Shown here: positions 14,063-28,996 of the stretch, one piece after another
Numbering within the stretch: position 1 is the stretch's first letter
Layout of the letters: every line of letters starts with the position of its first letter
IMG/VR virus record: IMGVR_UViG_3300021962_000134
Span: 1 to 54,512 of that record
Source: a virus
Taxonomy: Duplodnaviria > Caudoviricetes
DNA: 54,512 nucleotides
Reading direction: 5' to 3' (one strand)
The notes under the pieces: model-generated
Told to the model about the DNA's origin: nothing
Databases searched by the model: none
The model's input: only the letters and a program-made list of their open reading frames with translations
Translations under genes and position numbers: made by a program

Positions 14063-14259
14063 TAATGTACCAGTCGTATGTCTTCAAACGAGTGCTCCCA
14101 CTCTTGTGGCTCTTCAAAGCCGGATGTTACTTGGAGTTCCATTTGGTCGGCGATTTCTTTCTCGCTCGGCATATTGTCTGGGTCGCATTCGACCTCGACT
14201 AAAACATCGTAGTAAATCCGCTTGACCACAGTTCCGGTGAACTTATGAAGTTTTTTCAT
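14062..14259 (-). CDS. Hypothetical protein
   Basis: 65 aa, overlap-coupled to both neighbours. Confidence 0.65.
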   Translation of the reverse strand: MKKLHKFTGTVVKRIYYDVLVEVECDPDNMPSEKEIADQMELQVTSGFEEPQEWEHSFEDIRLVH

Positions 14260-15080
14260 GCTGCCTCCTTCATGACTTCAATTAACTTTGGTCTTTTGAG
14301 TATAGTTGATTTTTCTTCGTTGTAAATATCGTGTTTGGCGACAAGACCAGCAATCTTGATCTTGCCACCTTTGATAACATTTTGACGGAAATAAAATCCT
14401 GTTTCGTCTTTAACCTCTTCATCCAACCAGCTTGCATTGGTGAATGTTTTAACAACATTTCCATTTTCGTCAACCATGATCAGCATAGTTGATCCACCAA
14501 ACTTGGTGCTAACGTTCTTGCGCAAAACAACTTTAAGTTCGATCTCGATCTTCTCACCAACTGTGCCGACGAACTCTGAAGTCTTTTTCTCAACAACTGG
14601 CTTTGCAACTTTTTCTGGGATTGAAAGAACACCCTCTTCGCAAAGCTGTTGAACAGCAACCATAGTTAATTTAAAAGTAGGCTGTTTGATTCTGATATTG
14701 ACTTCTTCAGACTTTAACCATTGCATGTACTGAGGGTCTTTCTCGACGATTTCAGAAAAAGTTCTGCCACGATATTTACCGAAGTTAATGATCTGGTGCT
14801 CTTTAATGAAAGCTATAACACGATTGTTGAGTAACTCGTTATTTTTGTGAGCACGAAGATCAAAGTCAGCATACCCAGTCAACAAAGAACCAGTTCGGGA
14901 TGCATATTGTTCAGCCATCTCATCAGCTTTTTTAGGGTCTGTTGAAAGATTCTTAATGTATCTGTCGCTGAACATCCAACCATTATTTGGGTCGGTTGAA
15001 TAAATAACTTTTCTCAATGTGTAGAACCCAGTTAGCTCGCCTGTCCCGATGTAAACTTCACGCTTGATATGGTCTGTCAT
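14256..15080 (-). CDS. Hypothetical protein with an FGKY(R/K)G motif domain and a probable C-terminal OB fold
   Basis: FGKYRGRTFSEIVEKDPQYMQWL, then SEFVGTVGEKIE... beta-rich domain; has its own promoter and RBS. Confidence 0.7.
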   Translation of the reverse strand: MTDHIKREVYIGTGELTGFYTLRKVIYSTDPNNGWMFSDRYIKNLSTDPKKADEMAEQYASRTGSLLTGYADFDLRAHKNNELLNNRVIAFIKEHQIINFGKYRGRTFSEIVEKDPQYMQWLKSEEVNIRIKQPTFKLTMVAVQQLCEEGVLSIPEKVAKPVVEKKTSEFVGTVGEKIEIELKVVLRKNVSTKFGGSTMLIMVDENGNVVKTFTNASWLDEEVKDETGFYFRQNVIKGGKIKIAGLVAKHDIYNEEKSTILKRPKLIEVMKEAA

Positions 15081-15785: not shown

Positions 15786-18599
15786 TTATTCGAGCTTCCT
15801 CCACTTTTCAACATAAATCTTACGGAATCCAGCTCTTAAATTCCCTTTTATCAAGTACCAATCTCCAATGCGTCCATCCTCGACTATTTGTTTACCGATT
15901 TTACTGTACTTGAAACGGTCAATGGTCGCGATGATTGGACCAGTGTCATCCTCAAAAGTCATGTTCAGCCATAGATTGTTCGAATCAACCCGACGACCGC
16001 CACGCTTTGCGAGGTTGACGGTTTCGTTCATGTCTCGTAAGTTTTTCTCTTTCAGCTTACCGAAAAACACAAATGTTCCTGGAGTGTCTGCGTCGAGTTT
16101 TTCAATGTCAGTGATTTGTGTACGGATGTTGTACTTTTCCGGATCACGCTTTATGTGACCGAACTTGCGGTCGCACTCGAAAATATCGTCATATGGGGTT
16201 GTGCCCTCGTTCAGCAGTTTTTCCTGACGTGGTGTCAATGGTTGTTTGAGTTTTCTGCGCTCAACAATGTCCTCTGCCATTTTTGGACCAATGCCTTTAA
16301 TACCGCCCAGCCCACCAATCAGCTCTCCATCCTGCACAGACCAGTTTTGCTTCGACTTGAATTTATCAAACGGTTTATAGCCCAGACCCTCTTTCACCAC
16401 TTCACGTAAGAGACGAACCGCTTGCTCATCATCTTTAACGTTACGCAAACACGCAGCAGCAAACTCAAGAGGAAATCTAGACTTAAGAACACAGCACCAA
16501 TAAGATACAAGCCCATAAGCAATGGCATGAGAGCGATTAAAAGCCCAACTGCCCATAGTGTTGATATTATCCCAAATGCGCTGGGCTTGTTCCTCAGATA
16601 TTCCATTTTCAGCTGCACCAACTTTGAACCTTTCCCAGAATGTGTCAAAATATTCCTTTCCGTAAGATTTGGACATCGCTTTGCGCAAAGTCGAAACATC
16701 CTCCCATGACAACTTGCCAACATCGCGTGCAATCGTCATGACCTGTTCCTGATAAACAACAACCCCGTTGGTGACTTTTGTTATTTTTTCAGTTAATGGG
16801 TGCAAATACTCCACCGGAGCTTCACCAGTGTGACGTTTAATATACTCGGTTGTGCCTCCGGAGTTAAGTGGTCCAGGACGCGCCAAAGCTGTGATTGCGG
16901 CAATGTCCTCAAAGCTATGAACCTTCATTTGGTGAGTGACGGATTGTAGCGCATAGCCCTCGAACTGGAAAATGCCTGCGTACTTGGCAGTGTTTAAAAC
17001 TTCAAATGCAGCTTCATCCTGCAAAGGGTAATTGATCAGCTTGTCTCTGTCCCACCCTACTTGATCAAGCACATCCTGCAAAACAGAAAGTGTGCGCAAT
17101 CCGAGTGCATCAATCTTCAACAGATTAAGTTCTTCAGCATCTTTTTTATCAATCTGTGCTGCACCTGTCTGACCAGAAACAGAACAGTACTCACTCACTG
17201 GGTGCTCAGTTACAATAATCCCTGCGGCATGAACCCCGTTGTGCCGAGCGTGGTTTTCCATATCTGCGGCAACTTTCATCTGTGGGTATTTTTCCAGCAC
17301 AGCCCTGCCAACATCCAATTCATTAAATGTGTCCAGGATACAAAACGCGGCACGTGAATCTCCAGAGCTACGCTCTATAATTGCACCTTTCAAGTCGTTC
17401 ACTTCCCAAGACGGGATGCCGAGCTCTTTGGCAACTTCTGCGATTGTGCTCTTGGCTTTGTAACGGGAAACTGTCCCCAAGTGTGCAACTTTCTCTGCAC
17501 CGTATTTAGCTCGCAAATATTCAAATACCATTTCTCTTCGATCATCCTGAAAATCAATATCAATATCTGGCAAGTCCTCACGAGTGATATCGATGAAACG
17601 CTCAAACAACAAATCATGTTCAATTGGGTCAATGTCGGTTATGTCAATCAAATAACAAACCAGAGACCCAGCTGAAGAACCACGCGCTGGTCCGACCAAC
17701 ATATGTTGCTTTGCGTACTTGATCATATCCGCGATGACGTAAAAATAATCTTCAAAGTTTTTCTGCGCAATCATATCCAGCTCACGCTTGAGCCTTGCGG
17801 CATAAACCTCGTCGTCCAAATTTATATTTTTACGCTTTGCACCTTCCTCACACATTTGTAGCAAAGTCTTCTGGCTGTGGAAGGAAACCATCTGTGCGGT
17901 CGGTAGATTAACATCGCACATCTGTGCAATTTTGTAAGTATTCTCCAGTGCAATCTCAGGTGCCCAAGGGAGTGCATCTCTCCACTCCCATTCATTTAAA
18001 ACGTGCATCGGGGCAGTACGGTCTGTGCGGTTTTTACCAACCAGCACCTCGTACGCTTTTTTGTCTCTCACTGTTGGGTAAAAATTATCTGAAGTCGCCA
18101 CAACCTGAAAACCTTTTTTCTCTGCAAACTCCAGAGCCTTGCGTGAGCTCATTGGGTTCAGCTCTATGAAAAGGTTTTCTTTCTTTGTTAACGGTAACAA
18201 ACCCCAATCCGGTGTTGTTCCGCTCAGCATAATGATGTTTTCACTCACATCGAACAAATCATCGTACCCAAGCCGAGGATAATAATAAAAATGTTCTTTG
18301 TCAGTGCTCTTTGTCACCAGCTTGTAAATTTCTGTCAGCCCAGCATTGTTACGGGCGATGAAAGCCATCTCGTTGGCGGGTTGCTTGGAACGTTCTGTTG
18401 CATCTCCAACAACAGGAATCTCAACCCCGAACAGAGGCTTTTTGCCAGCAGATTTGCAAACCTTGCTAAAGTTTACATGACCCCAAGTGCCAGAATCACA
18501 TATCCCGATTGCATCTCCGCTGACAGATTCTACTATTTTATTAACCGAGCCGAACGCTTTACGGAAACAGTACTCAGTTCTGACTCGGATATTGATCAT
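15786..18599 (-). CDS. dnaE: DNA polymerase III alpha subunit (family C)
   Basis: GPARGSSAGSLV, LLFERF, PDIDIDF, HAAG, KIDALGL, GIFQFEG, YQEQ, FNRSHA; N-terminal PHP domain. Confidence 0.97.
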   Translation of the reverse strand: MINIRVRTEYCFRKAFGSVNKIVESVSGDAIGICDSGTWGHVNFSKVCKSAGKKPLFGVEIPVVGDATERSKQPANEMAFIARNNAGLTEIYKLVTKSTDKEHFYYYPRLGYDDLFDVSENIIMLSGTTPDWGLLPLTKKENLFIELNPMSSRKALEFAEKKGFQVVATSDNFYPTVRDKKAYEVLVGKNRTDRTAPMHVLNEWEWRDALPWAPEIALENTYKIAQMCDVNLPTAQMVSFHSQKTLLQMCEEGAKRKNINLDDEVYAARLKRELDMIAQKNFEDYFYVIADMIKYAKQHMLVGPARGSSAGSLVCYLIDITDIDPIEHDLLFERFIDITREDLPDIDIDFQDDRREMVFEYLRAKYGAEKVAHLGTVSRYKAKSTIAEVAKELGIPSWEVNDLKGAIIERSSGDSRAAFCILDTFNELDVGRAVLEKYPQMKVAADMENHARHNGVHAAGIIVTEHPVSEYCSVSGQTGAAQIDKKDAEELNLLKIDALGLRTLSVLQDVLDQVGWDRDKLINYPLQDEAAFEVLNTAKYAGIFQFEGYALQSVTHQMKVHSFEDIAAITALARPGPLNSGGTTEYIKRHTGEAPVEYLHPLTEKITKVTNGVVVYQEQVMTIARDVGKLSWEDVSTLRKAMSKSYGKEYFDTFWERFKVGAAENGISEEQAQRIWDNINTMGSWAFNRSHAIAYGLVSYWCCVLKSRFPLEFAAACLRNVKDDEQAVRLLREVVKEGLGYKPFDKFKSKQNWSVQDGELIGGLGGIKGIGPKMAEDIVERRKLKQPLTPRQEKLLNEGTTPYDDIFECDRKFGHIKRDPEKYNIRTQITDIEKLDADTPGTFVFFGKLKEKNLRDMNETVNLAKRGGRRVDSNNLWLNMTFEDDTGPIIATIDRFKYSKIGKQIVEDGRIGDWYLIKGNLRAGFRKIYVEKWRKLE

Positions 18600-18655
18600 G
18601 GGAAAAGTATAACCGCAACCAACACAGCTATAAAATTAATAACTATTGGATCCAT
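18596..18655 (-). CDS. 19-aa hydrophobic micro-ORF (MDPIVINFIAVLVAVILFP)
   Basis: TGATG overlap with the dnaQ stop and ATGA overlap with the dnaE start. Confidence 0.5.
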   Translation of the reverse strand: MDPIVINFIAVLVAVILFP

Positions 18656-19188
18656 CAGATGTGCCCTTCCTTTCTGTACCATTTTAAAATTTTCACTGTT
18701 GCTTCAACATCCGCAATCGAACGGTGTGCGCCAGTGTGCTCTTCCCCAGTAACCTCGAAATAAATATCTCCGAGTTTACGGAACTTGCCCCAAACAGACT
18801 TGCTTATTTCCATAGTGCAAATATGATCTGGTGGCCATGGGAACTTTGTAATCTTGTCTATCCTTTCTAGTTCGAACCGCAGTATTCTACGGTCGAAAGA
18901 TAAATTATGCGCCACGAGCTGACTTTCGCCAAGGAAAAAATCACACAATGTTTTGTAATTCCCTATGAAAGGTTTTTCATCCTTCAGCATTTCGTCGGTG
19001 ATGCCTGTGATCTTGGTGATCTGAGGATCTAACTCATGACCAGGATTGCAGAAAAACTCCAACCGAGCAACCTCGTTCAGATCTGCGTCGAGTTTCAATC
19101 CACCAAACTCGATGATCTTCGGTTGTATTTCTAGGTCAGAACCTTCTGCTTTTGGCAAGCCGGTCGTTTCCAAATCATACACTATCAT
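18655..19188 (-). CDS. dnaQ: DnaQ-like DEDDh 3'-5' exonuclease (Pol III epsilon-like)
   Basis: DLETTG, AHN..FD, H.S.AD; start at MIVYD after an AAGGA RBS. Confidence 0.92.
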   Translation of the reverse strand: MIVYDLETTGLPKAEGSDLEIQPKIIEFGGLKLDADLNEVARLEFFCNPGHELDPQITKITGITDEMLKDEKPFIGNYKTLCDFFLGESQLVAHNLSFDRRILRFELERIDKITKFPWPPDHICTMEISKSVWGKFRKLGDIYFEVTGEEHTGAHRSIADVEATVKILKWYRKEGHI

Positions 19189-19348
19189 CAGCAGTTTTCC
19201 TTTTGAAGCCAGATGGCTTTTTCTTGGCCAAACAAACATCACATCGCCAATGTCGTTGCCCGTTCTTCAACAATATTCTTTTGAATGCTGGACGAGTCCT
19301 ACAGCCTTGACAAGTTTTGCTGGTTTCGCCGTTAATTATTAATGTCAT
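19175..19348 (-). CDS. Small zinc-finger protein
   Basis: CQGC...RCDVC in a basic 57-aa ORF. Confidence 0.55.
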   Translation of the reverse strand: MTLIINGETSKTCQGCRTRPAFKRILLKNGQRHWRCDVCLAKKKPSGFKRKTADDSV

Positions 19349-19619
19349 GATCCAAAGACTCCAACATGAACGCATAAACTCCCATATCGTGGACTGAATC
19401 AATATGAGTGTCTGGCCAATTTTGAGCGTACCGCGTCAACTTGGCAACAATCATGTTAACAATCCCGAAACGATTCCACTCCTCCTCAGTACGCAGAGTT
19501 ATACCATCCGGAAACAAAGCTGTCATAACTTTTCCGTGCTGAAGGTAGTTCTGCCCGTAGACTTTGCTCCGCTCTCGGAAAGTTTCCAGAGCTTGTTCCA
19601 TGCATTGTTCAGGAGTCAT
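19332..19619 (-). CDS. All-alpha NTP-pyrophosphatase-like / nucleotide-modification-associated domain protein
   Basis: FRER...YG, KLTRY and DS..D...YA.ML pattern. Confidence 0.55.
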   Translation of the reverse strand: MTPEQCMEQALETFRERSKVYGQNYLQHGKVMTALFPDGITLRTEEEWNRFGIVNMIVAKLTRYAQNWPDTHIDSVHDMGVYAFMLESLDHDINN

Positions 19620-19848
19620 AATGTTCCTTTTCTTTGTTCATTGCTTCAATCAGCCCTTGCCGGTATCCGTCTTGCCAACCTTCAGAGTATGCAGTTTGCC
19701 AACTCATGCCTTCCTCTTCTCGGTCGATGTAAGTTCTCTCGATTGCTTTTTCTAAATTGTAACGCATCGTGCCAACAATGTCGAAAACCCGCGCAACCTT
19801 TTCCCCGTCAAGTTCCAAATCATTTCCGTTCAATTTAAGTTCTGGCAT
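19609..19848 (-). CDS. Hypothetical protein
   Basis: Start MPELK coupled to the upstream stop; AYSEGWQDGYRQG motif. Confidence 0.6.
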   Translation of the reverse strand: MPELKLNGNDLELDGEKVARVFDIVGTMRYNLEKAIERTYIDREEEGMSWQTAYSEGWQDGYRQGLIEAMNKEKEHYDS

Positions 19849-20282
19849 CACATATCTCCTGGAGCAACTTGTAAACAATGAACACCTTCCCCACGCCACA
19901 TGTCCACACAACTGCTTTTGTCCTCAAGCACAAACCAAACATCTTTGTAATTAAAATTGTCCTGAAAGATTTTTTGTTTGCAGTCTGCGTCTGAAAGGTG
20001 ATTGTCGTTTGGTCTCATCAGCAATCTGTCGTAAGGTATATCGTTCAGCTTCAACCAACGCTCGGTCTCTGTCCGGTTGCGCTCAGTTCTCGCAGTCATG
20101 ATAACAACCTCTGTCTCTGGGTCTTTTAACCTACGCAGTATGTTGCAGATGGCTTCAATCGGTCTGTCTTTAATTCCTTCTGCGTTGAATTGTTCATACT
20201 CACGCTTTTTATAGAGCTCAACCCTATGACCATAATCCCCTAACGTACCGTCTAAATCTGAAATAATTACGCGCTTATCCAC
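19848..20282 (-). CDS. HAD-superfamily phosphatase (PNKP phosphatase-like)
   Basis: DLDGTL, TAR, LLMR...D, K, LED motifs. Confidence 0.88.
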   Translation of the reverse strand: MDKRVIISDLDGTLGDYGHRVELYKKREYEQFNAEGIKDRPIEAICNILRRLKDPETEVVIMTARTERNRTETERWLKLNDIPYDRLLMRPNDNHLSDADCKQKIFQDNFNYKDVWFVLEDKSSCVDMWRGEGVHCLQVAPGDM

Positions 20283-20761
20283 GATGGAGCCTCTCTGTTT
20301 GTGTACTTTGTTGCAAAAGAAATTTTTTCACCTACAATGTAATCGCGGTACGCTTGCACTGCGCGGTTGGGGTGTTGTTTGTATTGATCCGGCATACACT
20401 GTGGTGGTTGAGTCCAAGCAACGTCCGGAATGTTTTTGGGTAACTCTTTAAGAGCTTGTAACAGCTTTTGCTCGGTCTTGTGGACTTTGCCGTAACGGTG
20501 AGTGTACTCTTTGCAGAGCGATGCAAAAAGCTCATAAGCCCAACGGTAATGTTTGATTGAAGAACGTACCCAAACTGCTGACGGGTGATTCTTGTGAGTG
20601 GACTTGTACATACCGAGCGCGTCTGCGTTGGTGTCGCCGTCCAACTCTCGGTGTGCGGTGCTGAGCAACTGCGCGGTCTCGAGAATCATCTTAACACAAT
20701 GCTTGTCACAGTGTGCTATTGCTGCAAGAGGCGCGTAATGGTGTAGATAAAATATGTTCAT
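20267..20761 (-). CDS. Pyrimidine-dimer DNA glycosylase-like protein (DenV family)
   Basis: MNIFYL..HCDKH.VKMILE.AQLLS, HKNHP, EY..RYG..H, PQCMP, AYR.Y. Confidence 0.8.
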   Translation of the reverse strand: MNIFYLHHYAPLAAIAHCDKHCVKMILETAQLLSTAHRELDGDTNADALGMYKSTHKNHPSAVWVRSSIKHYRWAYELFASLCKEYTHRYGKVHKTEQKLLQALKELPKNIPDVAWTQPPQCMPDQYKQHPNRAVQAYRDYIVGEKISFATKYTNREAPSWISA

Positions 20762-20775
20762 CTTTTGTTCCTTTC

Positions 20776-20934
20776 TCAGAAAATTTCAATGTCAATATTG
20801 TTTAATGGCGTCTCACCAGATTCATGATCCTTTAACAGCTTTTCAATTTCTTTCAAAACCGAAGCAGAATCATCACAACGTATCGGATATTTGAACCCGA
20901 GCTCATTAGTGAAAAACACTATGAATTTTTCCAT
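20776..20934 (-). CDS. Hypothetical 52-aa protein (not in the ORF track)
   Basis: MEKFIVFFTNELGFKYPIRCDD...; preceded by promoter P3 and TGAGAAAGGA. Confidence 0.65.
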   Translation of the reverse strand: MEKFIVFFTNELGFKYPIRCDDSASVLKEIEKLLKDHESGETPLNNIDIEIF

Positions 20935-20961
20935 ATTTTTCCTTTCTCAGTAAGAACCATT

Positions 20962-20990
20962 ATTATACTCTGTAATTGATCAAAAGAAAA
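20962..20990 (-). promoter_or_regulatory. Sigma70-like promoter P3
   Basis: TTTTCT-N17-TATAAT. Confidence 0.7.
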
Positions 20991-21174
20991 GCCTGAAAAC
21001 CCTTCTCAGGAGCCCAGTTTTCTTGCGTTTACTCAGCAGGTACTGGACTGTCTTTTTGCCCTGCCAGCCCATCTCCTCGGCTATTTGTAGGTAGGTTTTG
21101 CCCTGTTTACGGAGAGCGTGGACCTTATCAACACAAGCCTGATCATATTTGAAACTTTTGTATTTGGACATCAT
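20980..21174 (-). CDS. Small HTH DNA-binding protein
   Basis: LRKQGKTYLQIAEEMG...TVQYLL. Confidence 0.7.
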   Translation of the reverse strand: MMSKYKSFKYDQACVDKVHALRKQGKTYLQIAEEMGWQGKKTVQYLLSKRKKTGLLRRVFRLFF

Positions 21175-21181
21175 TTTCTCC

Positions 21182-21373
21182 TTAAATGCTGTATGGACAC
21201 CAAGAATTAAAAACATACCTCTGAACATATTTGCAATCATAATCCATGCAGTACGTTCCTACATATTTGAACCCTTGCGCAGTGGAAACTCCCTCGCACC
21301 GCAACAGCGTGGCGGACATGGCAGGGATCGCAACCGAACAATACAGAACAGCAATAGCTAACAACTTTTTCAT
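21182..21373 (-). CDS. Small exported Cys-rich protein
   Basis: MKKLLAIAVL...PAMS signal-peptide-like start; four Cys in the mature part; AGGAGG RBS. Confidence 0.65.
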   Translation of the reverse strand: MKKLLAIAVLYCSVAIPAMSATLLRCEGVSTAQGFKYVGTYCMDYDCKYVQRYVFNSWCPYSI

Positions 21374-21381
21374 AAATCCTC

Positions 21382-22026
21382 CTATGGGTTAAGTGCTTTG
21401 TACATGGATGGTGCAGCCCACTCAGTGGGTGTCAAAAACGGTTCAGCCCATGGGTGGACTTTAACAACTTCCCCAACCATCAGCTTGAACACTTCTTGGT
21501 ACTCGCCTTGCGCACGTGGTGAGAGCCGAGACTTGGCCATTTCACTCAGTGTGCGCAGATTGAATTTTGCAACGATGTTTGTATGAATGTTTGTCGGTAA
21601 TACACCGCGAGCATCCTCAGCCGGAACTATCTTGCGTAGTTTTTGGTAGTAGATGTTGATTGTTTTCATACACTCGTCGTAATACGTTTTTGCATCTTCG
21701 TTTTCCTCGATGCGTGGCGGAGTGTAATAACTGAAACCAGTCATATCAACTGTGCGCTGAGACTGCTGTGCGTACGAGCCTTGTCTGGTGCGAACGAACT
21801 GGTGGGTGAATCCTCGGGTCACATCTCTCACATTAAAAGTGTAATCAATGAACTCCCAAGAGGAGCGGATTGTTTTAAGCATATAATCCAACTCCTCTTG
21901 TTTCTGTTCTTCAGTCCAATTGGAAATTTTCTTGTACGCATCGTCGTCGTTCATTAAGCGAGTGTTCTTGGTGAACAACAACAGATTAACTGCATCATCG
22001 GTGTAACTTATCAACTCAACCTTCAT
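21382..22026 (-). CDS. thyX: Flavin-dependent thymidylate synthase-like protein (atypical motif)
   Basis: S.WEF, HQFVRTR..SYAQQSQR, EDARGVLP, NLR, R....AQ.E. Confidence 0.85.
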   Translation of the reverse strand: MKVELISYTDDAVNLLLFTKNTRLMNDDDAYKKISNWTEEQKQEELDYMLKTIRSSWEFIDYTFNVRDVTRGFTHQFVRTRQGSYAQQSQRTVDMTGFSYYTPPRIEENEDAKTYYDECMKTINIYYQKLRKIVPAEDARGVLPTNIHTNIVAKFNLRTLSEMAKSRLSPRAQGEYQEVFKLMVGEVVKVHPWAEPFLTPTEWAAPSMYKALNP

Positions 22027-22027
22027 T

Positions 22028-22966
22028 TTATTTTCCTTTCTGAGAATGCATCCAACGTGAATAGTCAGATTCTTTCGAGACGAACTCGTCTATGATTTTT
22101 AAATCCTCAACAACATCATCCATTAACAGCTGTCGCCAAGTGGCAAACCGCCCAACGGAGTAAATGTTGTGTTTGGTGGTCATTTCAAAAATAAACTGCT
22201 TGCGTAACCGTTCGTCGATTGGTCGGATCTTCCCGAACTCCTGAGAAGATTCTTTTATATCGACGAGCTTGGTTGGCTTTATACCGAAATCATCCATCAG
22301 CGTGATCATTGTGTGCTGTCCAGCGTTCATGTTAGGCTTGCGGATGAATTCAGATATCACCGTATCACCCACGACTGAAACTCGGTAGTGATCTGTGATT
22401 GGGTCAGGGTAGTAAACGGTTTGGTGAACCGCGCACTCCATGTCTATAATGCGTGCAGTCTGTGTGTAGATTTTTTGCTTAGGGAACTCTGGCACATCTG
22501 GCCAACCAACAATCTTCATCAGTATCGGCATCGGTATTGTGGAGATGATTGGGGTGTTGTACTTTTTTGCATCCTCTATCGACTGCATCGTCATTGGATC
22601 ATTGTACAATATGTTGCAGTTTTTAGACATTGCGCTTATGAGTTCCCAAGGAGCAATGTAACGGTCAACCGGATCCAAATTGCTGATCGAACGGCTCAGT
22701 ATCGCACCTGTGACTTTTTGTGAATACAAATTGCTCAAGAAAAGATTCGGCGTTGTCACGAGTTTGCCATCGTACTTGATTGCTTTGTGAACGCGAACTT
22801 TCCTGAACGGTATGTTACAGGCTGTGCCGACTTTGTCAGTTCGGAACCGCAACAGAGCTCCATGGTTGTTTGGCAGAGAACCTTGCGACTCACAAATGGT
22901 AGGATCAAACCTACGCAAAGCGTGTGCCGCCAACAGACCTGCCAATCCTGCTCCATAAATAAACAT
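22028..22966 (-). CDS. FAD-dependent oxidoreductase (Glf/HemY-like Rossmann fold)
   Basis: IYGAGLAGLLAA, IISTIP, YSVGRFATW. Confidence 0.8.
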   Translation of the reverse strand: MFIYGAGLAGLLAAHALRRFDPTICESQGSLPNNHGALLRFRTDKVGTACNIPFRKVRVHKAIKYDGKLVTTPNLFLSNLYSQKVTGAILSRSISNLDPVDRYIAPWELISAMSKNCNILYNDPMTMQSIEDAKKYNTPIISTIPMPILMKIVGWPDVPEFPKQKIYTQTARIIDMECAVHQTVYYPDPITDHYRVSVVGDTVISEFIRKPNMNAGQHTMITLMDDFGIKPTKLVDIKESSQEFGKIRPIDERLRKQFIFEMTTKHNIYSVGRFATWRQLLMDDVVEDLKIIDEFVSKESDYSRWMHSQKGK

Positions 22967-23439
22967 CAATTAACCTCGACATTCCCTTTTTTAATATCCC
23001 AAGCCAAGTCTTGCAACCTTCCACCTTTCGAGACAAACATCTCGTAGCTGATTGGGGAGTTGTCGATAATTATTTGCAAAGATGTGTAACCGTGCGTGTC
23101 TTTGCGACGATTGTTGTCTTGAGTTTTGGCTACGAGGTTTTTCCCTGCGTAACCAGATTTGCGTCCACGTGTGCTTCCGCTTTTGACTTGTTTAACTTTA
23201 ACTTCTACGACTTCCATAGTTTTACCTTTCAGTCTTTGTTTAATGTCGAGCAATTCCTCATGAGCTGATTCCCAACTAAATTGGATATTGCCTGTTTTGT
23301 GAAACTCGTGCCAATCTCTTTTGTATTTCTTTTTGAAAACTTTAAGATCAGCACTGATGTGTACGTAGCCACGAGGCAACTGCTCCACGCTTATTTGCAT
23401 GGAGTCAGCTAGCTTCTGGCAGTTTTGTTTTGCGCTCAT
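22966..23439 (-). CDS. Hypothetical protein, possibly DNA-binding
   Basis: Basic C-terminal half ending GGRLQDLAWDIKKGNV; coupled to the FAD gene by TGATG. Confidence 0.65.
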   Translation of the reverse strand: MSAKQNCQKLADSMQISVEQLPRGYVHISADLKVFKKKYKRDWHEFHKTGNIQFSWESAHEELLDIKQRLKGKTMEVVEVKVKQVKSGSTRGRKSGYAGKNLVAKTQDNNRRKDTHGYTSLQIIIDNSPISYEMFVSKGGRLQDLAWDIKKGNVEVN

Positions 23440-25385: not shown

Positions 25386-25645
25386 TCTTTGTCAGCGTGA
25401 TAAGAATTATTTTTAATCCAACGCATGAAAGAAAGAAACTTCATCATTGACTCTTTAACATCTTTTTCCATTGGCCAGAGTTTTACAAAATCTTCGTCGA
25501 GATATTGTGCGACAGATTTCATGTGTCCGACTATCTCGGAAACTTGCCTTGGTGATAAACTAGTCCATAGTTCGTGGTAAGTTCTCATGGTGTTAATCTC
25601 CCAAATCATTTTTTCGATCTTGGATCGGTCTCTTGGGTCCATCAT
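25382..25645 (-). CDS. Hypothetical protein
   Basis: 87 aa, overlap-coupled to both neighbours. Confidence 0.65.
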   Translation of the reverse strand: MMDPRDRSKIEKMIWEINTMRTYHELWTSLSPRQVSEIVGHMKSVAQYLDEDFVKLWPMEKDVKESMMKFLSFMRWIKNNSYHADKE

Positions 25646-27183
25646 CAGAACTGCTCCTGTACGGCAGTTGGTATTTCTAAATCATCCTCGTCGTCGTAGA
25701 ACTCTGGTGCTGGAACCGACCATACTTTAACTGGTTTGGACTTAATTCGAAAAGTCTTCCGGTCTCCACCAGATGAGCGCAACCAACTCCACACCTGATG
25801 CTGAGAGGGGTATCTGAAACGTCTTCCTTCGAGATATATAAATAAGTCCTCGGAGCGGAAGTAGACTTTGCCCTCGTCTGGGTCATGCCATGGCTTGGCG
25901 TTCATAATTTCGTCGCGATGTCTTGCTTGAACTTTTCCAGTTAAGAACGAGTCCAACATTTTCTCAAACTGACCTTGTGGCGATGCGTCGTCTGGGTCTT
26001 GTATGACTTCAACAGTGTTAAGCAATTCGTTAATGCGTTGCTCCCAACGTTGTGCAGGCATTTTTGCTGGGCACTTGTTCAGTTTCTCAACGCATATTTT
26101 TTGCAACTGGCTTTGGTCGAGGAGTTGTTGGGTTGTGACCTCGATGCGCTCGCCTTGTATCTCTAAGTACCAGCGCACAGAACTGCGGTTCTCGGTTTCG
26201 TACTTTGTGATTGCGTCGATCTCAATCGCCAACCCACCACCAACACCACCAATCCCGAACTCACGCTTCATGCACTTGGACTTCTCACAATAGTTACAGA
26301 TTGGTGCTTGCTTACAGGTGTATGCGTAATCTTTTTTGCTCACGGATTTTATTAACCCATTGACCTCACCAGATGGCAGGGGTGCTGGCATGCTTTCATA
26401 ATTAAACCGCATCAAGTCCTCTTGCCAGTCGTCAGGGTTCTTTTTCCGGAAGTACACCCCAACGTTAAACAACGAGATGTTGCGACCACCTTCTGGGAAG
26501 CCCATCGTCATGATATGTTGAAGGCATGGCGGACCATCGTCGAAGTGAGATGTTAAGTCTGGTTCGAACGTTTGTAGCTTTTCCCATGTGGTTGTTTTCT
26601 TTTCTGCAAACTCTACAAAACTTTCCAATGAAAGTTTTTTGCCTTTGTGAATTGCGAAACGCTCAGTGTTGTCTCCATCCCAATAACACAAGTTAATCCA
26701 GTTGCCTCGGTCTCGGTCGTTGGCTCGGCTGATTTGCTTGGGGAATATTTCCGCACCACCATAACCCAACGTTGCGGCAAACTCGTTAAGTTTGGCCACC
26801 ATGTCGATTGCAGCAATAGCCGGTTCACAAAATAAGTACAAGTGTGCACCACCACTCTTCGATCTACAAAGCACAAGTGGGGTGTCTCTAATTTTTTTCT
26901 CCAACTGTTCCAAAGATTCGTTCAGCTTAACTTCGCCACGGATATCGATGTCGATCACACCAAAGTTGCACGAGTTATCATCACGCAACATGATCACACC
27001 GAGTATGAACTCGCCACCTTTTAAATGAGATTCGTAGTGTTGCAGAGTTGCCGGTTCGGAAACGGTTACGGCTCTGCCCGACATTTTGCCGTCGGCTTCG
27101 CGCTTGGAAACGCGGTATTCCCCGTGGGCTTGCGAGTAGCCACGAAACAATTTCATGAAGCGTTTAATTAACGGTGCTTCCAT
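25645..27183 (-). CDS. Archaeo-eukaryotic-type primase with PriCT and a Cys-rich region
   Basis: IDID, RSKSGGAHLYLF, EIFPKQ, PPCL, EGGRN, C...C..C....C. Confidence 0.85.
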   Translation of the reverse strand: MEAPLIKRFMKLFRGYSQAHGEYRVSKREADGKMSGRAVTVSEPATLQHYESHLKGGEFILGVIMLRDDNSCNFGVIDIDIRGEVKLNESLEQLEKKIRDTPLVLCRSKSGGAHLYLFCEPAIAAIDMVAKLNEFAATLGYGGAEIFPKQISRANDRDRGNWINLCYWDGDNTERFAIHKGKKLSLESFVEFAEKKTTTWEKLQTFEPDLTSHFDDGPPCLQHIMTMGFPEGGRNISLFNVGVYFRKKNPDDWQEDLMRFNYESMPAPLPSGEVNGLIKSVSKKDYAYTCKQAPICNYCEKSKCMKREFGIGGVGGGLAIEIDAITKYETENRSSVRWYLEIQGERIEVTTQQLLDQSQLQKICVEKLNKCPAKMPAQRWEQRINELLNTVEVIQDPDDASPQGQFEKMLDSFLTGKVQARHRDEIMNAKPWHDPDEGKVYFRSEDLFIYLEGRRFRYPSQHQVWSWLRSSGGDRKTFRIKSKPVKVWSVPAPEFYDDEDDLEIPTAVQEQF

Positions 27184-27201
27184 CAGGATCATTCCTTTCT
27201 G

Positions 27202-27228
27202 AAAAAGAGAGGGGGCTCAGCCCCTCTC
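27202..27228 (-). terminator. Rho-independent terminator between SSB and primase
   Basis: GAGAGGGG/CCCCTCTC stem followed by TTTTT on the minus strand. Confidence 0.7.
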
Positions 27229-27235
27229 GTCAGTT

Positions 27236-28027
27236 TTACATTACGTCGGTTTCGTCGACTTCTTGTGCTACTTTGACTTCGCCTGATGTTGCGGATTGTC
27301 GGAATGATCTTGCGGCAAGATACAAATCTTTGCCATTTGGGAGTTGCTCGATGATGCCACCGCTTTGTGCATCGTACAACATTTTAATGGACCAACCAAA
27401 CCATGAACCCTGATCGTTTTCCTCGGGCACAGTCGTGAGTTGGTACGCGGTCCAAAATGAAGCGGCAGGTATGCTTTGACCGTTCACATTGATTGTGAGA
27501 CGTTGCATCATTGCGTTCCACTGTCGAGCTTTTTTGCTTTGGCTCTTGGACATGCTGATTGAAGCAGGAATGTAAGAACCATCCTCGTTCACCACAAGCA
27601 CAATGAACTCAGAGGTGGGAACAACTTCGTTTCCGTCGGGAGTTAAATACTCCCCACGTGAACCTCTGGTCAGTGTTGTGAGACAAGAACTGTCTGGTCC
27701 ATGATCCGCGACAAATCCACCTCTGTCCGCTTTCCACTCAAGATGTGCTTTGCGGAAGTGGACCGGAATCACTGTGAGACCTTTTGCTCCGTCGTACACA
27801 GCTTGCGCAACGTTGTCGTAGATCGAGCCTTGCTCTGCGCCTTCGATGTATGCTCCGTCGCGTTTGTTAACTTGTGGACTTAACGCTTGCAGAATACTCA
27901 GGCGTGGAATCATTATATCGTCACGTGTGACGTTTTCCAGCCCTGCTCCTGCGTCTTCTAAAAGTATTGATGAGTCAAATGCGACCACATCGGTGTTTTG
28001 CTTTTTTGCTACTTCTGCTTTTGCCAT
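27236..28027 (-). CDS. Putative ssDNA-binding/annealing protein
   Basis: IPRLSILQALSPQV motif, N.QG.WFGW, acidic tail; lies in the replication module. Confidence 0.6.
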   Translation of the reverse strand: MAKAEVAKKQNTDVVAFDSSILLEDAGAGLENVTRDDIMIPRLSILQALSPQVNKRDGAYIEGAEQGSIYDNVAQAVYDGAKGLTVIPVHFRKAHLEWKADRGGFVADHGPDSSCLTTLTRGSRGEYLTPDGNEVVPTSEFIVLVVNEDGSYIPASISMSKSQSKKARQWNAMMQRLTINVNGQSIPAASFWTAYQLTTVPEENDQGSWFGWSIKMLYDAQSGGIIEQLPNGKDLYLAARSFRQSATSGEVKVAQEVDETDVM

Positions 28028-28032
28028 AATGA

Positions 28033-28626
28033 TTATCTCCTAATGTTGGCACGACGACCAGTGTAAACTCTGAACAACTCCATGGGCACATCACGACCCT
28101 CCGTCAAACGCTCTTTCATAAAACTGTTAAGTGTCTGGGGGTGGACGCTGGTTGCCCGTTTGTAATTTAGATGTTGGTCACGCAAAGCTGCAGTGAATGC
28201 GTTTGCTGCCTCGTCCTCATCACGTCCAAATTGAACCTCAACTGCGCTCTTGATCAGATCCCCGCCACCATTGGCGCGTAACCAATCAAAGCACTGCTGT
28301 TGGAGTAACAACAACTCTGCCCGCACAGATTCCTCTTTGGCGCGGTCGATTGCACCTTGCGAGGGAATGCTTGCTTGGATCACATCCTTCACGTCGATCT
28401 TCGAACCATCGTTCAGTTCAAAGCTACGGATGTTGAGCTCTTGCATCAGATCTGGTAGATCGTTCTCCGCCAACACTTTGAGATCCTGCTTCTTTTGCTT
28501 CAACAGCTCTTCCATGCGTTCAATCTCAGCTTCGAGATTGACCATGCGTTGAGCCATGTCTGCGACTGCACCAAGTTCTGTGGACGCTGGTGCCACGTCC
28601 ATGAGCAGATCAATGTCGGTTGACAT
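28033..28626 (-). CDS. Conserved replication-module protein (coiled coil plus VHPQTL motif)
   Basis: LPDLM.E...F.L.DG, WLR.NG.GD, VHPQTL; start at MSTDID after the RBS. Confidence 0.7.
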   Translation of the reverse strand: MSTDIDLLMDVAPASTELGAVADMAQRMVNLEAEIERMEELLKQKKQDLKVLAENDLPDLMQELNIRSFELNDGSKIDVKDVIQASIPSQGAIDRAKEESVRAELLLLQQQCFDWLRANGGGDLIKSAVEVQFGRDEDEAANAFTAALRDQHLNYKRATSVHPQTLNSFMKERLTEGRDVPMELFRVYTGRRANIRR

Positions 28627-28630
28627 ACGT

Positions 28631-28996
28631 TTAGTCTTCCTTTCTAAACTCGAGCGCAACGGGCATGTACCAACCTTTCCGCCTGTCGCGTTCGCCTTCT
28701 TCGAGATTGCGCTCCCAACGGAGCACTCGTACTGTGTTGGCCTTTTCACGTGCGATCATCGTAACAATCATCACCGCAATCGGGTCACCACCTCCTGGCC
28801 AAAGAATATAATCTTCTGCCGAGAAGTCTTTCATGATGCGACGAGCTTTTTGTATGCTCGGCACCGGCAAGAACTGCGGACGGTCGTTTTCCTCGAAAAC
28901 GATCTCGAGTGTACCGTAACGCGCAGCATCACTTAAATCTGGAGTCCACCCGAACTTGTTACGAGTTGGGCGGTTGACTACGTAAACTTTTGGCAC
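28631..28996 (-). CDS. Conserved hypothetical protein, first gene of the leftward arm
   Basis: GTG start after GAGAAAGGA; KVYVV, A.RYG and DYIL...GDP motifs. Confidence 0.75.
   Translation of the reverse strand: MPKVYVVNRPTRNKFGWTPDLSDAARYGTLEIVFEENDRPQFLPVPSIQKARRIMKDFSAEDYILWPGGGDPIAVMIVTMIAREKANTVRVLRWERNLEEGERDRRKGWYMPVALEFRKED

Follow-up and report, generated by a model that had tools for sequence, protein, structure and literature searches.

A flavoprotein, ThyX and phosphatase gene set in the replication operon of a marine tailed phage: a candidate portable cassette on the thymidylate branch

The gene run

The window analysed here, by which we mean the whole 54,512 bases of IMG/VR record IMGVR_UViG_3300021962_000134, is a complete virus record (CheckV completeness 100%) of a marine tailed phage. 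It carries a run of genes in which a flavoprotein, a divergent flavin-dependent thymidylate synthase (ThyX), a remote DenV-like protein, a stand-alone HAD phosphatase and an all-helical DUF6378-like protein are followed by a DnaQ-type exonuclease and a DnaE-type DNA polymerase. These genes are all on the minus strand, inside one minus-strand block that extends from 11,962 to about 29,700. A first-pass annotation, made from the letters alone, had described positions 18655-22966 as a candidate pathway of pyrimidine substitution or modification feeding a phage DnaE. The co-oriented run that it saw is real and the genes that it listed are present, although DnaE (15786-18599) falls outside the coordinates that it gave and four small open reading frames (ORFs) had been left out.

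The packing of the run is tight: ThyX starts one base past the stop codon of the flavoprotein gene, and the stop of the HAD gene overlaps the start of the next gene. We read the run as the nucleotide-metabolism part of the replication operon of the phage, with at its core a portable cassette that would act on the deoxyuridylate/thymidylate branch, and we hold this view at about even confidence. The following sections describe the members of the cassette and its distribution among phages, and then the functions that could be attributed to it.

A divergent ThyX subfamily

ThyX enzymes make deoxythymidine monophosphate (dTMP) from deoxyuridine monophosphate (dUMP) with methylenetetrahydrofolate (CH2-THF), flavin adenine dinucleotide (FAD) and nicotinamide adenine dinucleotide phosphate (NADPH), and their signature motif is worded RHRxxS. 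The ThyX of the window (21382..22026, minus strand; 214 aa) matches the Pfam family Thy1 along the entire model (positions 1-191 of 191; 3.2e-38, 131.8 bits against a cut-off of 24.8) and scores 100.6 bits against the NCBIfam equivalog TIGR02170, whose cut-off is 87.9. Its residues were numbered from a HMMER alignment to the ThyX of Thermotoga maritima, minus a 12-residue tag, an offset that reproduces Ser88, Arg90, Tyr91 and Arg174 as they are named in the accessible text of PMC8316439. On this numbering the protein keeps Gln75, Arg78, Arg80, Ser83, Ser88, Arg90, Arg147, Asn163, Arg165 and Arg174; His53 is absent, and His59 is changed to Phe, His79 to Thr, Glu86 to Gln, Tyr91 to Thr, Asn169 to Glu and His178 to Arg. 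Where the full signature reads RHRxxS...SxRY, the window reads RTR...SQRT, so that the “atypical ThyX” of the first-pass annotation is borne out, with RTR for RHR, Thr for Tyr91 and no His53. In the part of PMC8316439 available to us, Ser88, Arg90 and Tyr91 of the T. maritima enzyme are named as conserved and catalytic, Tyr91 and Ser88 are called strictly conserved, and the Y91A variant is reported to slow methylene transfer more than 100-fold.

These positions were followed through a clade set of 58 distinct sequences, including those of phages PB1, 14-1, Ss1, VA-RY-3, Carpasina, Gekk3-15 and RHph_TM61. The residues that bind the phosphate and base of dUMP (Gln75, Arg78, Arg80, Arg90, Arg147 and Arg174) are invariant in 58/58, and the Ser88 position is Ser or Thr throughout. 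The His79 position is occupied by Thr in 54 sequences, by Asn in 3 and by His in 1, and that of Tyr91 by Thr, Ala, Val or Ile in all 58, with Tyr in none. In these alignments the dUMP-binding set of the window ThyX is intact.

A search of 1.84 billion cluster representatives yielded 3315 ThyX relatives at E<=0.001, 105 of them at E<=1e-30. Of the best 150 (the nearest 50%-identity clusters), 90 have RTR, 28 have RHR and 6 have a Tyr where Tyr91 would be; only towards the end of this list does the canonical combination (GH.S, His59, RHR, SxRY) come back. On its residues, the window ThyX belongs to a large and distinct divergent subfamily that has kept the dUMP-binding arginines and lost Tyr91 and the signature histidines.

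Some members of the subfamily are longer than the window protein. When 14 of these were compared with the flavoprotein by BLAST no flavoprotein part was found, and an hhalign comparison of the flavoprotein profile with one of them (P0160) was also negative. Pfam, run on ten of the 14, gave Thy1, a weak sub-threshold Pam3_gp59 match (P0128), one intein and nothing else. In the representatives P0206 and P0179 an insertion follows the residue aligned to residue 74 of the window ThyX, right before the RTR motif; that of P0206 (637 aa) matches Intein_splicing at 1.6e-12.

A phage-specific flavoprotein

The gene next to ThyX (22028..22969, minus strand; likely start ATG at 22966) encodes a phage-specific flavoprotein of 312-313 aa, with the fold shared by amine oxidases, protoporphyrinogen oxidase (PPO) and UDP-galactopyranose mutase (UGM). 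Its N-terminus presents a GxGxxG Rossmann motif; across 43 sequences, Gly6, Gly8 and Gly11 vary little or not at all, and Glu27, the acidic residue that closes strand 2, does not vary. The protein corresponds to phrog_4828, of unknown function (2.1e-68). Of 3198 candidates, 1140 are homologues at E<=1e-5, and a precomputed Pfam domain is absent from all 120 of those listed. For the window protein itself, no Pfam family matches at E<=0.01, Amino_oxidase, GLF and NAD_binding_8 included, the sole NCBIfam match scores 11.5 bits over residues 2-30, and a sequence search of solved structures returned nothing credible. In the ESM Atlas its clusters are viral only, the nearest cellular families being Amino_oxidase/NAD_binding_8 (the structure rows name Amino_oxidase). 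A search for fusions found no longer homologue (549-2000 aa), which is weak evidence.

An AlphaFold2 model built from 43 sequences reached a mean predicted local distance difference test (pLDDT) score of 85.8, and Foldseek placed UGM, renalase and PPO at the top of its matches, from E 1.7e-9. The best structural match is UGM 4dsh_B (Z 19.5, 301 residues aligned, root-mean-square deviation 3.9), followed by PPO 2ivd_B (Z 18.9) and, at Z 16.7, monoamine oxidase (MAO). The modelled fold confirms, at the level of the fold, the FAD oxidoreductase proposed earlier; since less than one Z unit separates UGM from PPO, which are in effect tied, the substrate class is not readable from it. A complex prediction with two ThyX chains and one flavoprotein gave a score of 0.00 against a mark of 0.32, with controls not run, and speaks neither for nor against binding.

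The phosphatase and its helical partner

The HAD protein (19848..20282, minus strand; 144 aa) matches HAD_PNKP at 1.6e-24 (87.1 bits, cut-off 27.6), with the DxDxT nucleophile motif present as DLDGT, and is also related to the Pnkp1 phosphatase domain (3.3e-12) and to T4 polynucleotide kinase (1.1e-4). No P-loop 5'-kinase domain was found in it, and all 144 aa are covered by the phosphatase model; its Pbunavirus homologue gains a linker and DUF6378 only. We classify it, from these matches, as a stand-alone HAD phosphatase of the polynucleotide 3'-phosphatase type. The first-pass annotation was right about the family, but the role of nucleotide-depleting enzyme that it envisaged in such pathways is not supported for a protein of this type, which is no known dNMP-depleting enzyme.

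Between the HAD and DUF6378 genes lies a small acidic ORF (19609..19848, minus strand; 79 aa from an internal ATG) that has no Pfam or PHROG family and a homologue in 71 of the 80 related viral contigs described below. At the same position Pbunavirus has an acidic low-complexity linker that joins HAD and DUF6378 in one polypeptide. The DUF6378-like protein itself (19332..19619, minus strand; 95 aa) aligns with positions 244-325 of phrog_4889 (5.8e-18). Its match to DUF6378 is weak, at 0.035 for the window copy, although 22/29 relatives match at E<=1, the best at 1.1e-5. The model consists of four helices (pLDDT 85.3), in agreement with the all-alpha protein described earlier, but the pyrophosphatase likeness proposed with it found no support. 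Indeed, the Pfam MazG family gave no match, and a sequence search of solved structures gave nothing credible. Foldseek gave no match at E<=0.001, the best standing at E 1.6 and a cyanophage MazG-like chain at E 5.8; a wide structural search reached at best Z 7.4, to unrelated generic helical proteins. In addition, hhalign comparisons of the DUF6378 profile with the MazG-like protein of phage F8 and with the DUF3310 protein of Ss1 gave a probability of 0.2% each.

Recurrence in unrelated phages

Related contigs were fetched with the flavoprotein as bait: a relative is encoded in 269 of the 285 matched viral-contig stretches, of which the best 80 (59-99% identity) were retained. ThyX is present in 80/80 and HAD in 77/80, the three misses being contigs that end soon after ThyX, and DUF6378 in 74/80. 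DnaQ (61/80) and DnaE (50/80) are less frequent, their counts being lowered by the many contigs that are cut. In isolated phages, 362 records match the flavoprotein and 564 match ThyX, and the genus tallies of the two run in parallel: 292/292 for Pseudomonas, 27/27 for Escherichia, 9/9 for Serratia and 8/10 for Rhizobium. The surplus ThyX records are those of phages whose ThyX is more distant (phages of Gordonia, Mycobacterium, Bacillus and others), and each of the 40 nearest ThyX matches listed belongs to a genus found in the flavoprotein tally or among the flavoprotein matches listed.

The trio of flavoprotein, ThyX and phosphatase is also present in PB1, F8, 14-1, Carpasina, Aeromonas phage Gekk3-15, the Ss1-like podophages and Rhizobium phage RHph_TM61, and Wifcevirus has the flavoprotein together with a ThyX of this subfamily. 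In RHph_TM61 the flavoprotein gene lies about 1.9 kb upstream of ThyX, and the DUF6378 profile matches the C-terminus of a 240-aa ORF annotated as “dehalogenase-like” (hydrolase-like) at 9.6e-36, so that there, as in Pbunavirus, DUF6378 is fused to the HAD domain. Because ThyX is found in every one of the 80 contigs and the pair recurs in unrelated phage types, the association of flavoprotein and ThyX exceeds chance. Moreover, the contig counts and the presence of the trio in unrelated phages define the conserved unit as the flavoprotein, ThyX and HAD/DUF6378. A likeness to PB1-like phages, and hence a portable module, had been suggested in the first-pass annotation, and both are confirmed, with nine homologous genes in PB1 and the trio in unrelated phages.

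It could be argued that these genes form no functional unit at all and are independent early or middle genes (a dTMP synthase, an unrelated oxidoreductase, UV repair, end healing) gathered in a compact operon. End-healing enzymes do have phosphatase domains of the polynucleotide 3'-phosphatase type to which the HAD domain belongs, a DNA ligase gene is part of the module in Pbunavirus, Ss1 and VA-RY-3, the flavoprotein and ThyX stand five or six small genes apart in PB1 and in the Rhizobium phage, and the DenV-like gene behaves independently, as described in the next section. Nevertheless, the F8 ligase has no match in the window, and the trio is kept across myophages, podophages, the 203-kb Rhizobium phage and the window phage while the surrounding genes change. 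The flavoprotein tally, furthermore, fits one ThyX clade and not the other phage ThyX (those of Gordonia, Mycobacterium and Bacillus phages). We therefore consider such an independent assortment unlikely.

The enzymes encoded in the slot that separates the HAD-type gene from DnaQ vary from phage to phage. In VA-RY-3 (L002:6683-7438) this slot holds a sulfotransferase-like protein (5.8e-7), and in Carpasina and Gekk3-15 (L087:11814-13030 and L086:12133-13346) a short-chain dehydrogenase/reductase (SDR; adh_short 4.9e-36 in Gekk3-15) and, after it, a protein that carries a glyoxalase/dioxygenase-like annotation in Gekk3-15.

The DenV-like gene and the replicase

The first-pass annotation had included a DenV-like glycosylase in the module. 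The protein in question (20267..20761, minus strand) belongs to phrog_624 (6e-56) and is a remote relative of the Pyr_excise superfamily. Its own match to Pyr_excise (3.4e-4) scores 21.3 bits, under the 23-bit cut-off, and a profile search of solved structures did not find endonuclease V; 20/22 relatives match Pyr_excise at E<=0.01, the best at 7.4e-7. Membership of the module does not stand. The protein occurs in 614 phage records, mostly of T4-like cyanophages, Vibrio phages and Acinetobacter phages, and its gene is found in 60/80 relatives, being missing even from loci with full flanks (e.g., L015, L018, L081). On account of this different phage range and of the incomplete presence among relatives, the DenV-like gene is an independent repair accessory outside the cassette.

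As for the replicase, both identifications made earlier hold. DnaQ (18655..19242, minus strand; its true start may be further in) is a 3'-5' proofreading exonuclease with a DEDDh domain, by RNase_T (3.4e-28) and phrog_192 (5.9e-40). DnaE (15786..18599, minus strand), the DNA polymerase III alpha subunit, matches DNA_pol3_alpha (3.3e-70) and phrog_405 (4.6e-252), with finger (1.4e-40) and PHP (6.1e-12) domains, and is 43% identical to the DnaE of Ss1 and of VA-RY-3. The partnership that had been proposed between the module and DnaE is another matter: RHph_TM61, a 203-kb Rhizobium phage, has the cassette and no DnaE match anywhere in its record, so that DnaE is a frequent neighbour and not an obligate partner. 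Thus, the co-occurrence anticipated by the first-pass annotation is found in other phages for the flavoprotein, ThyX and HAD, while the DenV-like gene and DnaE are not constant.

Modified thymidine reported for Pbunavirus

Two of the phages that bear the cassette, F8 and 14-1, are reported to have modified DNA. According to the accessible text of a preprint (version 1, PMC12191111), F8 virion DNA is cut by EcoRI, HindIII, XbaI, DraI and BsaI and uncut by five enzymes with TG sites. Liquid chromatography coupled to mass spectrometry (LC-MS) is said there to have revealed new nucleosides, at 362 mass units in F8 and at 390 in 14-1, with about a quarter of T replaced. The authors read the first as a tetrose sugar-alcohol derivative and the second as a cyclised aldopentose derivative, both structures being tentative, and describe Pbunavirus as being without genes earlier linked to modification. 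A term search of that text found no biosynthetic gene named for the adduct, and a literature search for later work returned nothing beyond this preprint.

The RefSeq annotations of PB1, F8 and 14-1 contain only three recognisable enzymes of nucleotide metabolism, namely ThyX, the HAD-DUF6378 protein and a protein like MazG, and list the flavoprotein as hypothetical. By BLAST, F8 shares with the window exactly ORF51-57, 59 and 65 and nothing else; its structural genes, ligase, MazG-like gene and ORF69-71 have no match there. The cassette is thus a candidate for the synthesis of the adduct through elimination alone. Wifcevirus, in turn, is reported to resist restriction-modification (RM) systems without a known protection mechanism.

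These facts invite a different interpretation of the cassette, as the central part of a ThyX-based pathway that ends in hypermodified thymidine, with the window phage and its metagenomic relatives carrying a non-canonical T. We regard it as possible, with a likelihood clearly below one half. In such a route the Tyr91-less ThyX and/or the flavoprotein would give a C5-activated deoxyuridine (dU), with an exocyclic 5-methylene or a 5-hydroxymethyl group, at the nucleotide or the DNA level; later a sugar or sugar phosphate would add, and HAD/DUF6378 would take off the remaining phosphate. A sugar phosphate as donor would make a phosphatase necessary. The last step of ThyX is a hydride transfer to an exocyclic 5-methylene intermediate, and in one variant of the route the enzyme pair might stall or reverse this step, leaving an exposed electrophile to be trapped by a sugar hydroxyl.

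Several observations would fit such a chemistry. TG-site resistance and the two nucleosides were reported in phages that carry the cassette (PMC12191111), the few nucleotide-metabolism enzymes recognisable in them include members of the cassette, and the overlap of window and F8 falls precisely on this module; the restriction resistance of Wifcevirus, another cassette-bearing phage, points in the same direction. By our own arithmetic, both masses correspond to 5-hydroxymethyldeoxyuridine (5-hmdU) joined to tetritol or pentose with the loss of water (258 + 122 - 18 = 362 and 258 + 150 - 18 = 390). The ThyX subfamily has lost Tyr91, a general acid, and the ThyX-DnaQ slot holds variable enzymes, SDR and glyoxalase/dioxygenase-like in Gekk3-15 and sulfotransferase-like in VA-RY-3. 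There is also a precedent in PaMx11 gp47, a flavoenzyme described in the available part of PMC8989533 as acting on hypermodified T in DNA. The precedent does not extend to homology, however, since an hhalign comparison of the flavoprotein profile with PaMx11 gp47 (a flavin lyase) aligned only 26 N-terminal columns, those of the dinucleotide-binding Rossmann motif, with a probability of 8%.

Other findings tell against it, besides the fact that the link with the adduct is by elimination. Specificity for TG implies an enzyme that reads sequence at the DNA level, and none is evident in the cassette. Despite their different adducts, F8 and 14-1 have flavoproteins that are 97% and ThyX that are 94% identical, and their ORF57, the HAD-DUF6378 protein, is 80% identical, with differences mainly in the linker. 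The most divergent gene between the two is ORF70 (F8 L089:4894-6090; 14-1 L091:4997-6301; 350-434 aa), with 56% identity where its neighbours exceed 90% (33% to PB1), and it has neither a Pfam family nor a homologue in the window. It is a candidate for the difference between the adducts, or else an anti-defence gene; Pfam gave no informative family for F8 ORF69, 70, 71, 66 and 50 or for 14-1 ORF70. In the window genome, a six-frame search for ThyA (PF00303) had no match, with 10 control genomes matched, and no GT1, GT2 or dUTPase family was found, in line with the absence of glycosyltransferases noted earlier; a Tet_JBP search, which matched 0 control genomes, is uninformative. Finally, the window ThyX passes the equivalog cut-off of NCBI, and the adducts, of tentative structure, are reported in PMC12191111 for Pbunavirus DNA, the window phage being judged from its genes.

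Proposed function

The output of the cassette that we consider most likely in the window phage, at roughly an even chance, is a plain or assisted supply of dTMP. ThyX would bind dUMP and add a one-carbon unit at C5, and the flavoprotein could supply or complete the redox or one-carbon step that a ThyX devoid of Tyr91 and His53 might not carry out alone. The HAD phosphatase, with DUF6378 as a helper, may strip phosphate from a nucleotide or a DNA-end intermediate, and the product would feed the DnaQ/DnaE replicase of the phage.

Several points weigh against this proposal. The missing Tyr91 argues, in view of the role assigned to this residue in the available text of PMC8316439, against ordinary dTMP synthesis by the window ThyX, and Pbunavirus, with the same cassette, is reported in PMC12191111 (as far as its accessible text goes) to have hypermodified thymidine, which favours the modification route. 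The enzymatic steps and the binding that we suggest are inferred from the gene content. The 80 contigs are close relatives, so that part of their synteny is simply inherited, and the genus figures compare tallies, with no record-by-record join. Canonical ThyX is not known to need a partner flavoprotein, and a helper role has no known precedent.

The flavoprotein family and the ThyX subfamily are both uncharacterised, whereas phage modules on the thymidylate branch or for DNA modification are already known. We also entertain, as a tentative possibility that falls short of probable, that the trio is a previously unrecognised route to C5-activated dU based on ThyX and not on ThyA, the missing core of adduct synthesis in Pbunavirus, in which case the window phage, Wifcevirus, the Ss1-like phages and the metagenomic relatives would all carry non-canonical thymine. 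Of the altered-T interpretation given in the first-pass annotation, what survives is a shared ThyX/flavoenzyme module, together with the modified thymidine reported for Pbunavirus F8 and 14-1 in the accessible preprint text; the places in the module that it gave to the DenV-like protein, DnaE and a pyrophosphatase do not.

Pbunaviruses rank with the most widely used phages of Pseudomonas therapy, and the portable trio of flavoprotein, ThyX and phosphatase is the only enzyme set that they have in common with a distant marine phage. If the trio makes the adduct, it would constitute the first ThyX-fold entry into DNA hypermodification, could explain the restriction resistance of Wifcevirus and would allow modified DNA to be recognised in metagenomes by a simple genomic marker. 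Otherwise it would still define a ThyX subfamily of 105 clusters at E<=1e-30 that has yet to be studied and whose flavoprotein partner looks obligate, a pair that bears on the workings of flavin-dependent thymidylate synthesis.

Neighbouring genes and genomic setting

Three small ORFs of poor conservation (20776..21373, minus strand) form an islet that separates ThyX from the DenV-like gene, is present in only 3 to 5 of the 80 relatives and looks like a recent insertion. It comprises a 63-aa ORF with a signal-peptide-like N-terminus (21182-21373), an 86-aa helix-turn-helix (HTH) protein (20980-21240; HTH phrog_3855, 4.7e-07) and a 52-aa ORF (20776-20934), all on the minus strand. Directly upstream of the flavoprotein, a 157-aa protein of unknown function (22966..23439, minus strand), whose stop overlaps the flavoprotein start, has no Pfam or PHROG family. 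It has a homologue in 62/80 related contigs, at 30-51% identity except for the near-identical L005/L006 (98-99%).

In transcription order, the minus-strand block opens with Pam3 gp33-like and Pam3 gp34-like proteins, a primase of the archaeo-eukaryotic primase (AEP) type, a UvrD-type helicase and two unknown proteins; the genes under study and DnaE come next, and two more unknowns and an SNF2 helicase with a small partner complete it. The first gene pair (27236-28749, minus strand) matches Pfam Pam3_Gp34 (1.1e-58) and DUF7307 / Pam3 gp33-like (5.5e-29), is homologous to Pbunavirus ORF51 and ORF52 and is always found within the replication module. A strong GC-rich hairpin of 8 pairs, 6 of them G-C (27207-27228), with a terminator score on both strands, separates the Pam3 gp34-like gene from that of the primase. 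The primase (25645-27192, minus strand; 515 aa) falls in phrog_21866 (5.1e-96); in Pfam, its N-terminal AEP domain is matched best by the AEP of the TOTE conflict system (1.1e-08). Further on, a 274-aa protein (14256-15080, minus strand) has a short ExoX-like C-terminal motif (6.9e-11, residues 98-123) and a homologue in 5/80 related contigs, many of which end before that point.

On the plus-strand side, the terminase, the portal and one virion protein alone are recognisable among ten structural-side ORFs compared with PHROGs. The region has no megablast match among isolated phages. Promoter-like sites in the window number 27, against 27.0 +/- 4.4 in shuffles, and terminator-like sites 29, against 18.0 +/- 4.2.

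Comparison with known systems

Compared with the canonical T. maritima ThyX (TM0449), the window protein has the full-length Thy1 match and the TIGR02170 pass expected of the family, whereas its clade has Thr, Val, Ala or Ile for Tyr91, with His53, His59 and the signature His79 replaced or absent and changes at Glu86, Asn169 and His178 as well. The flavoprotein, for its part, shares with UGM, PPO and the flavin amine oxidases the same two-domain FAD fold over nearly its whole length (288-301 residues aligned), but it differs from them by an identity of 8-15%, by its size (313 aa vs 390-510) and by the viral-only range of its family.

The known pathways to thymidines substituted at the C5-methyl (M6, ViI, PaMx11, PhiW-14) involve, in the accessible text of PMC8989533, a ThyA-family dUMP hydroxymethylase, a P-loop 5-hmdU DNA kinase and aGPT-Pplase transferases. 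As in the PaMx11 locus, the window has a phage thymidylate-synthase homologue beside a flavoenzyme, together with its own polymerase. The difference is that the 5-hmdU-based pathways use the ThyA family (PMC8989533, as available), of which the window genome has no match, and that its flavoprotein shows no detectable kinship with PaMx11 gp47 past the Rossmann motif.

The module of Pbunavirus (PB1 gp53-gp59, gp61 and gp68; F8 ORF51-57, 59 and 65) contains nine genes homologous to genes of the window. The identities to PB1 are 41% for DnaE, 36% for DnaQ (gp58), 39% for ThyX, 35% for the flavoprotein, 34% for the SNF2 helicase, 21% for HAD, 35% for DUF6378, and 29% and 30% for the Pam3 gp33-like and gp34-like proteins respectively. 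The order ThyX, HAD/DUF6378, DnaQ, DnaE is common to both. In Pbunavirus, in contrast, HAD and DUF6378 form one protein through the acidic linker, being separate genes in the window; the flavoprotein gene lies six small genes upstream of ThyX instead of adjoining it; and the PB1 ThyX has 305 aa against 214. The DenV-like gene is extra in the window.

By identity, the closest isolates are the Ss1-like podophages (Cronobacter vB_CsaP_Ss1, Vibrio VA-RY-3, PVA7 and Ralstonia PY059YO380), at 41-43% for DnaE, 51-54% for ThyX and 37-40% for the flavoprotein. Their ligase follows DnaE, and the gene after ThyX in Ss1 combines a weak HAD_PNKP match with DUF3310 where the window has DUF6378, VA-RY-3 also having a weak HAD match there. 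The variable slot is filled by an HNH endonuclease in Ss1 and by the sulfotransferase-like gene in VA-RY-3. Throughout, these podophages and the window phage share the order helicase, flavoprotein, ThyX, HAD-like, DnaQ and DnaE.

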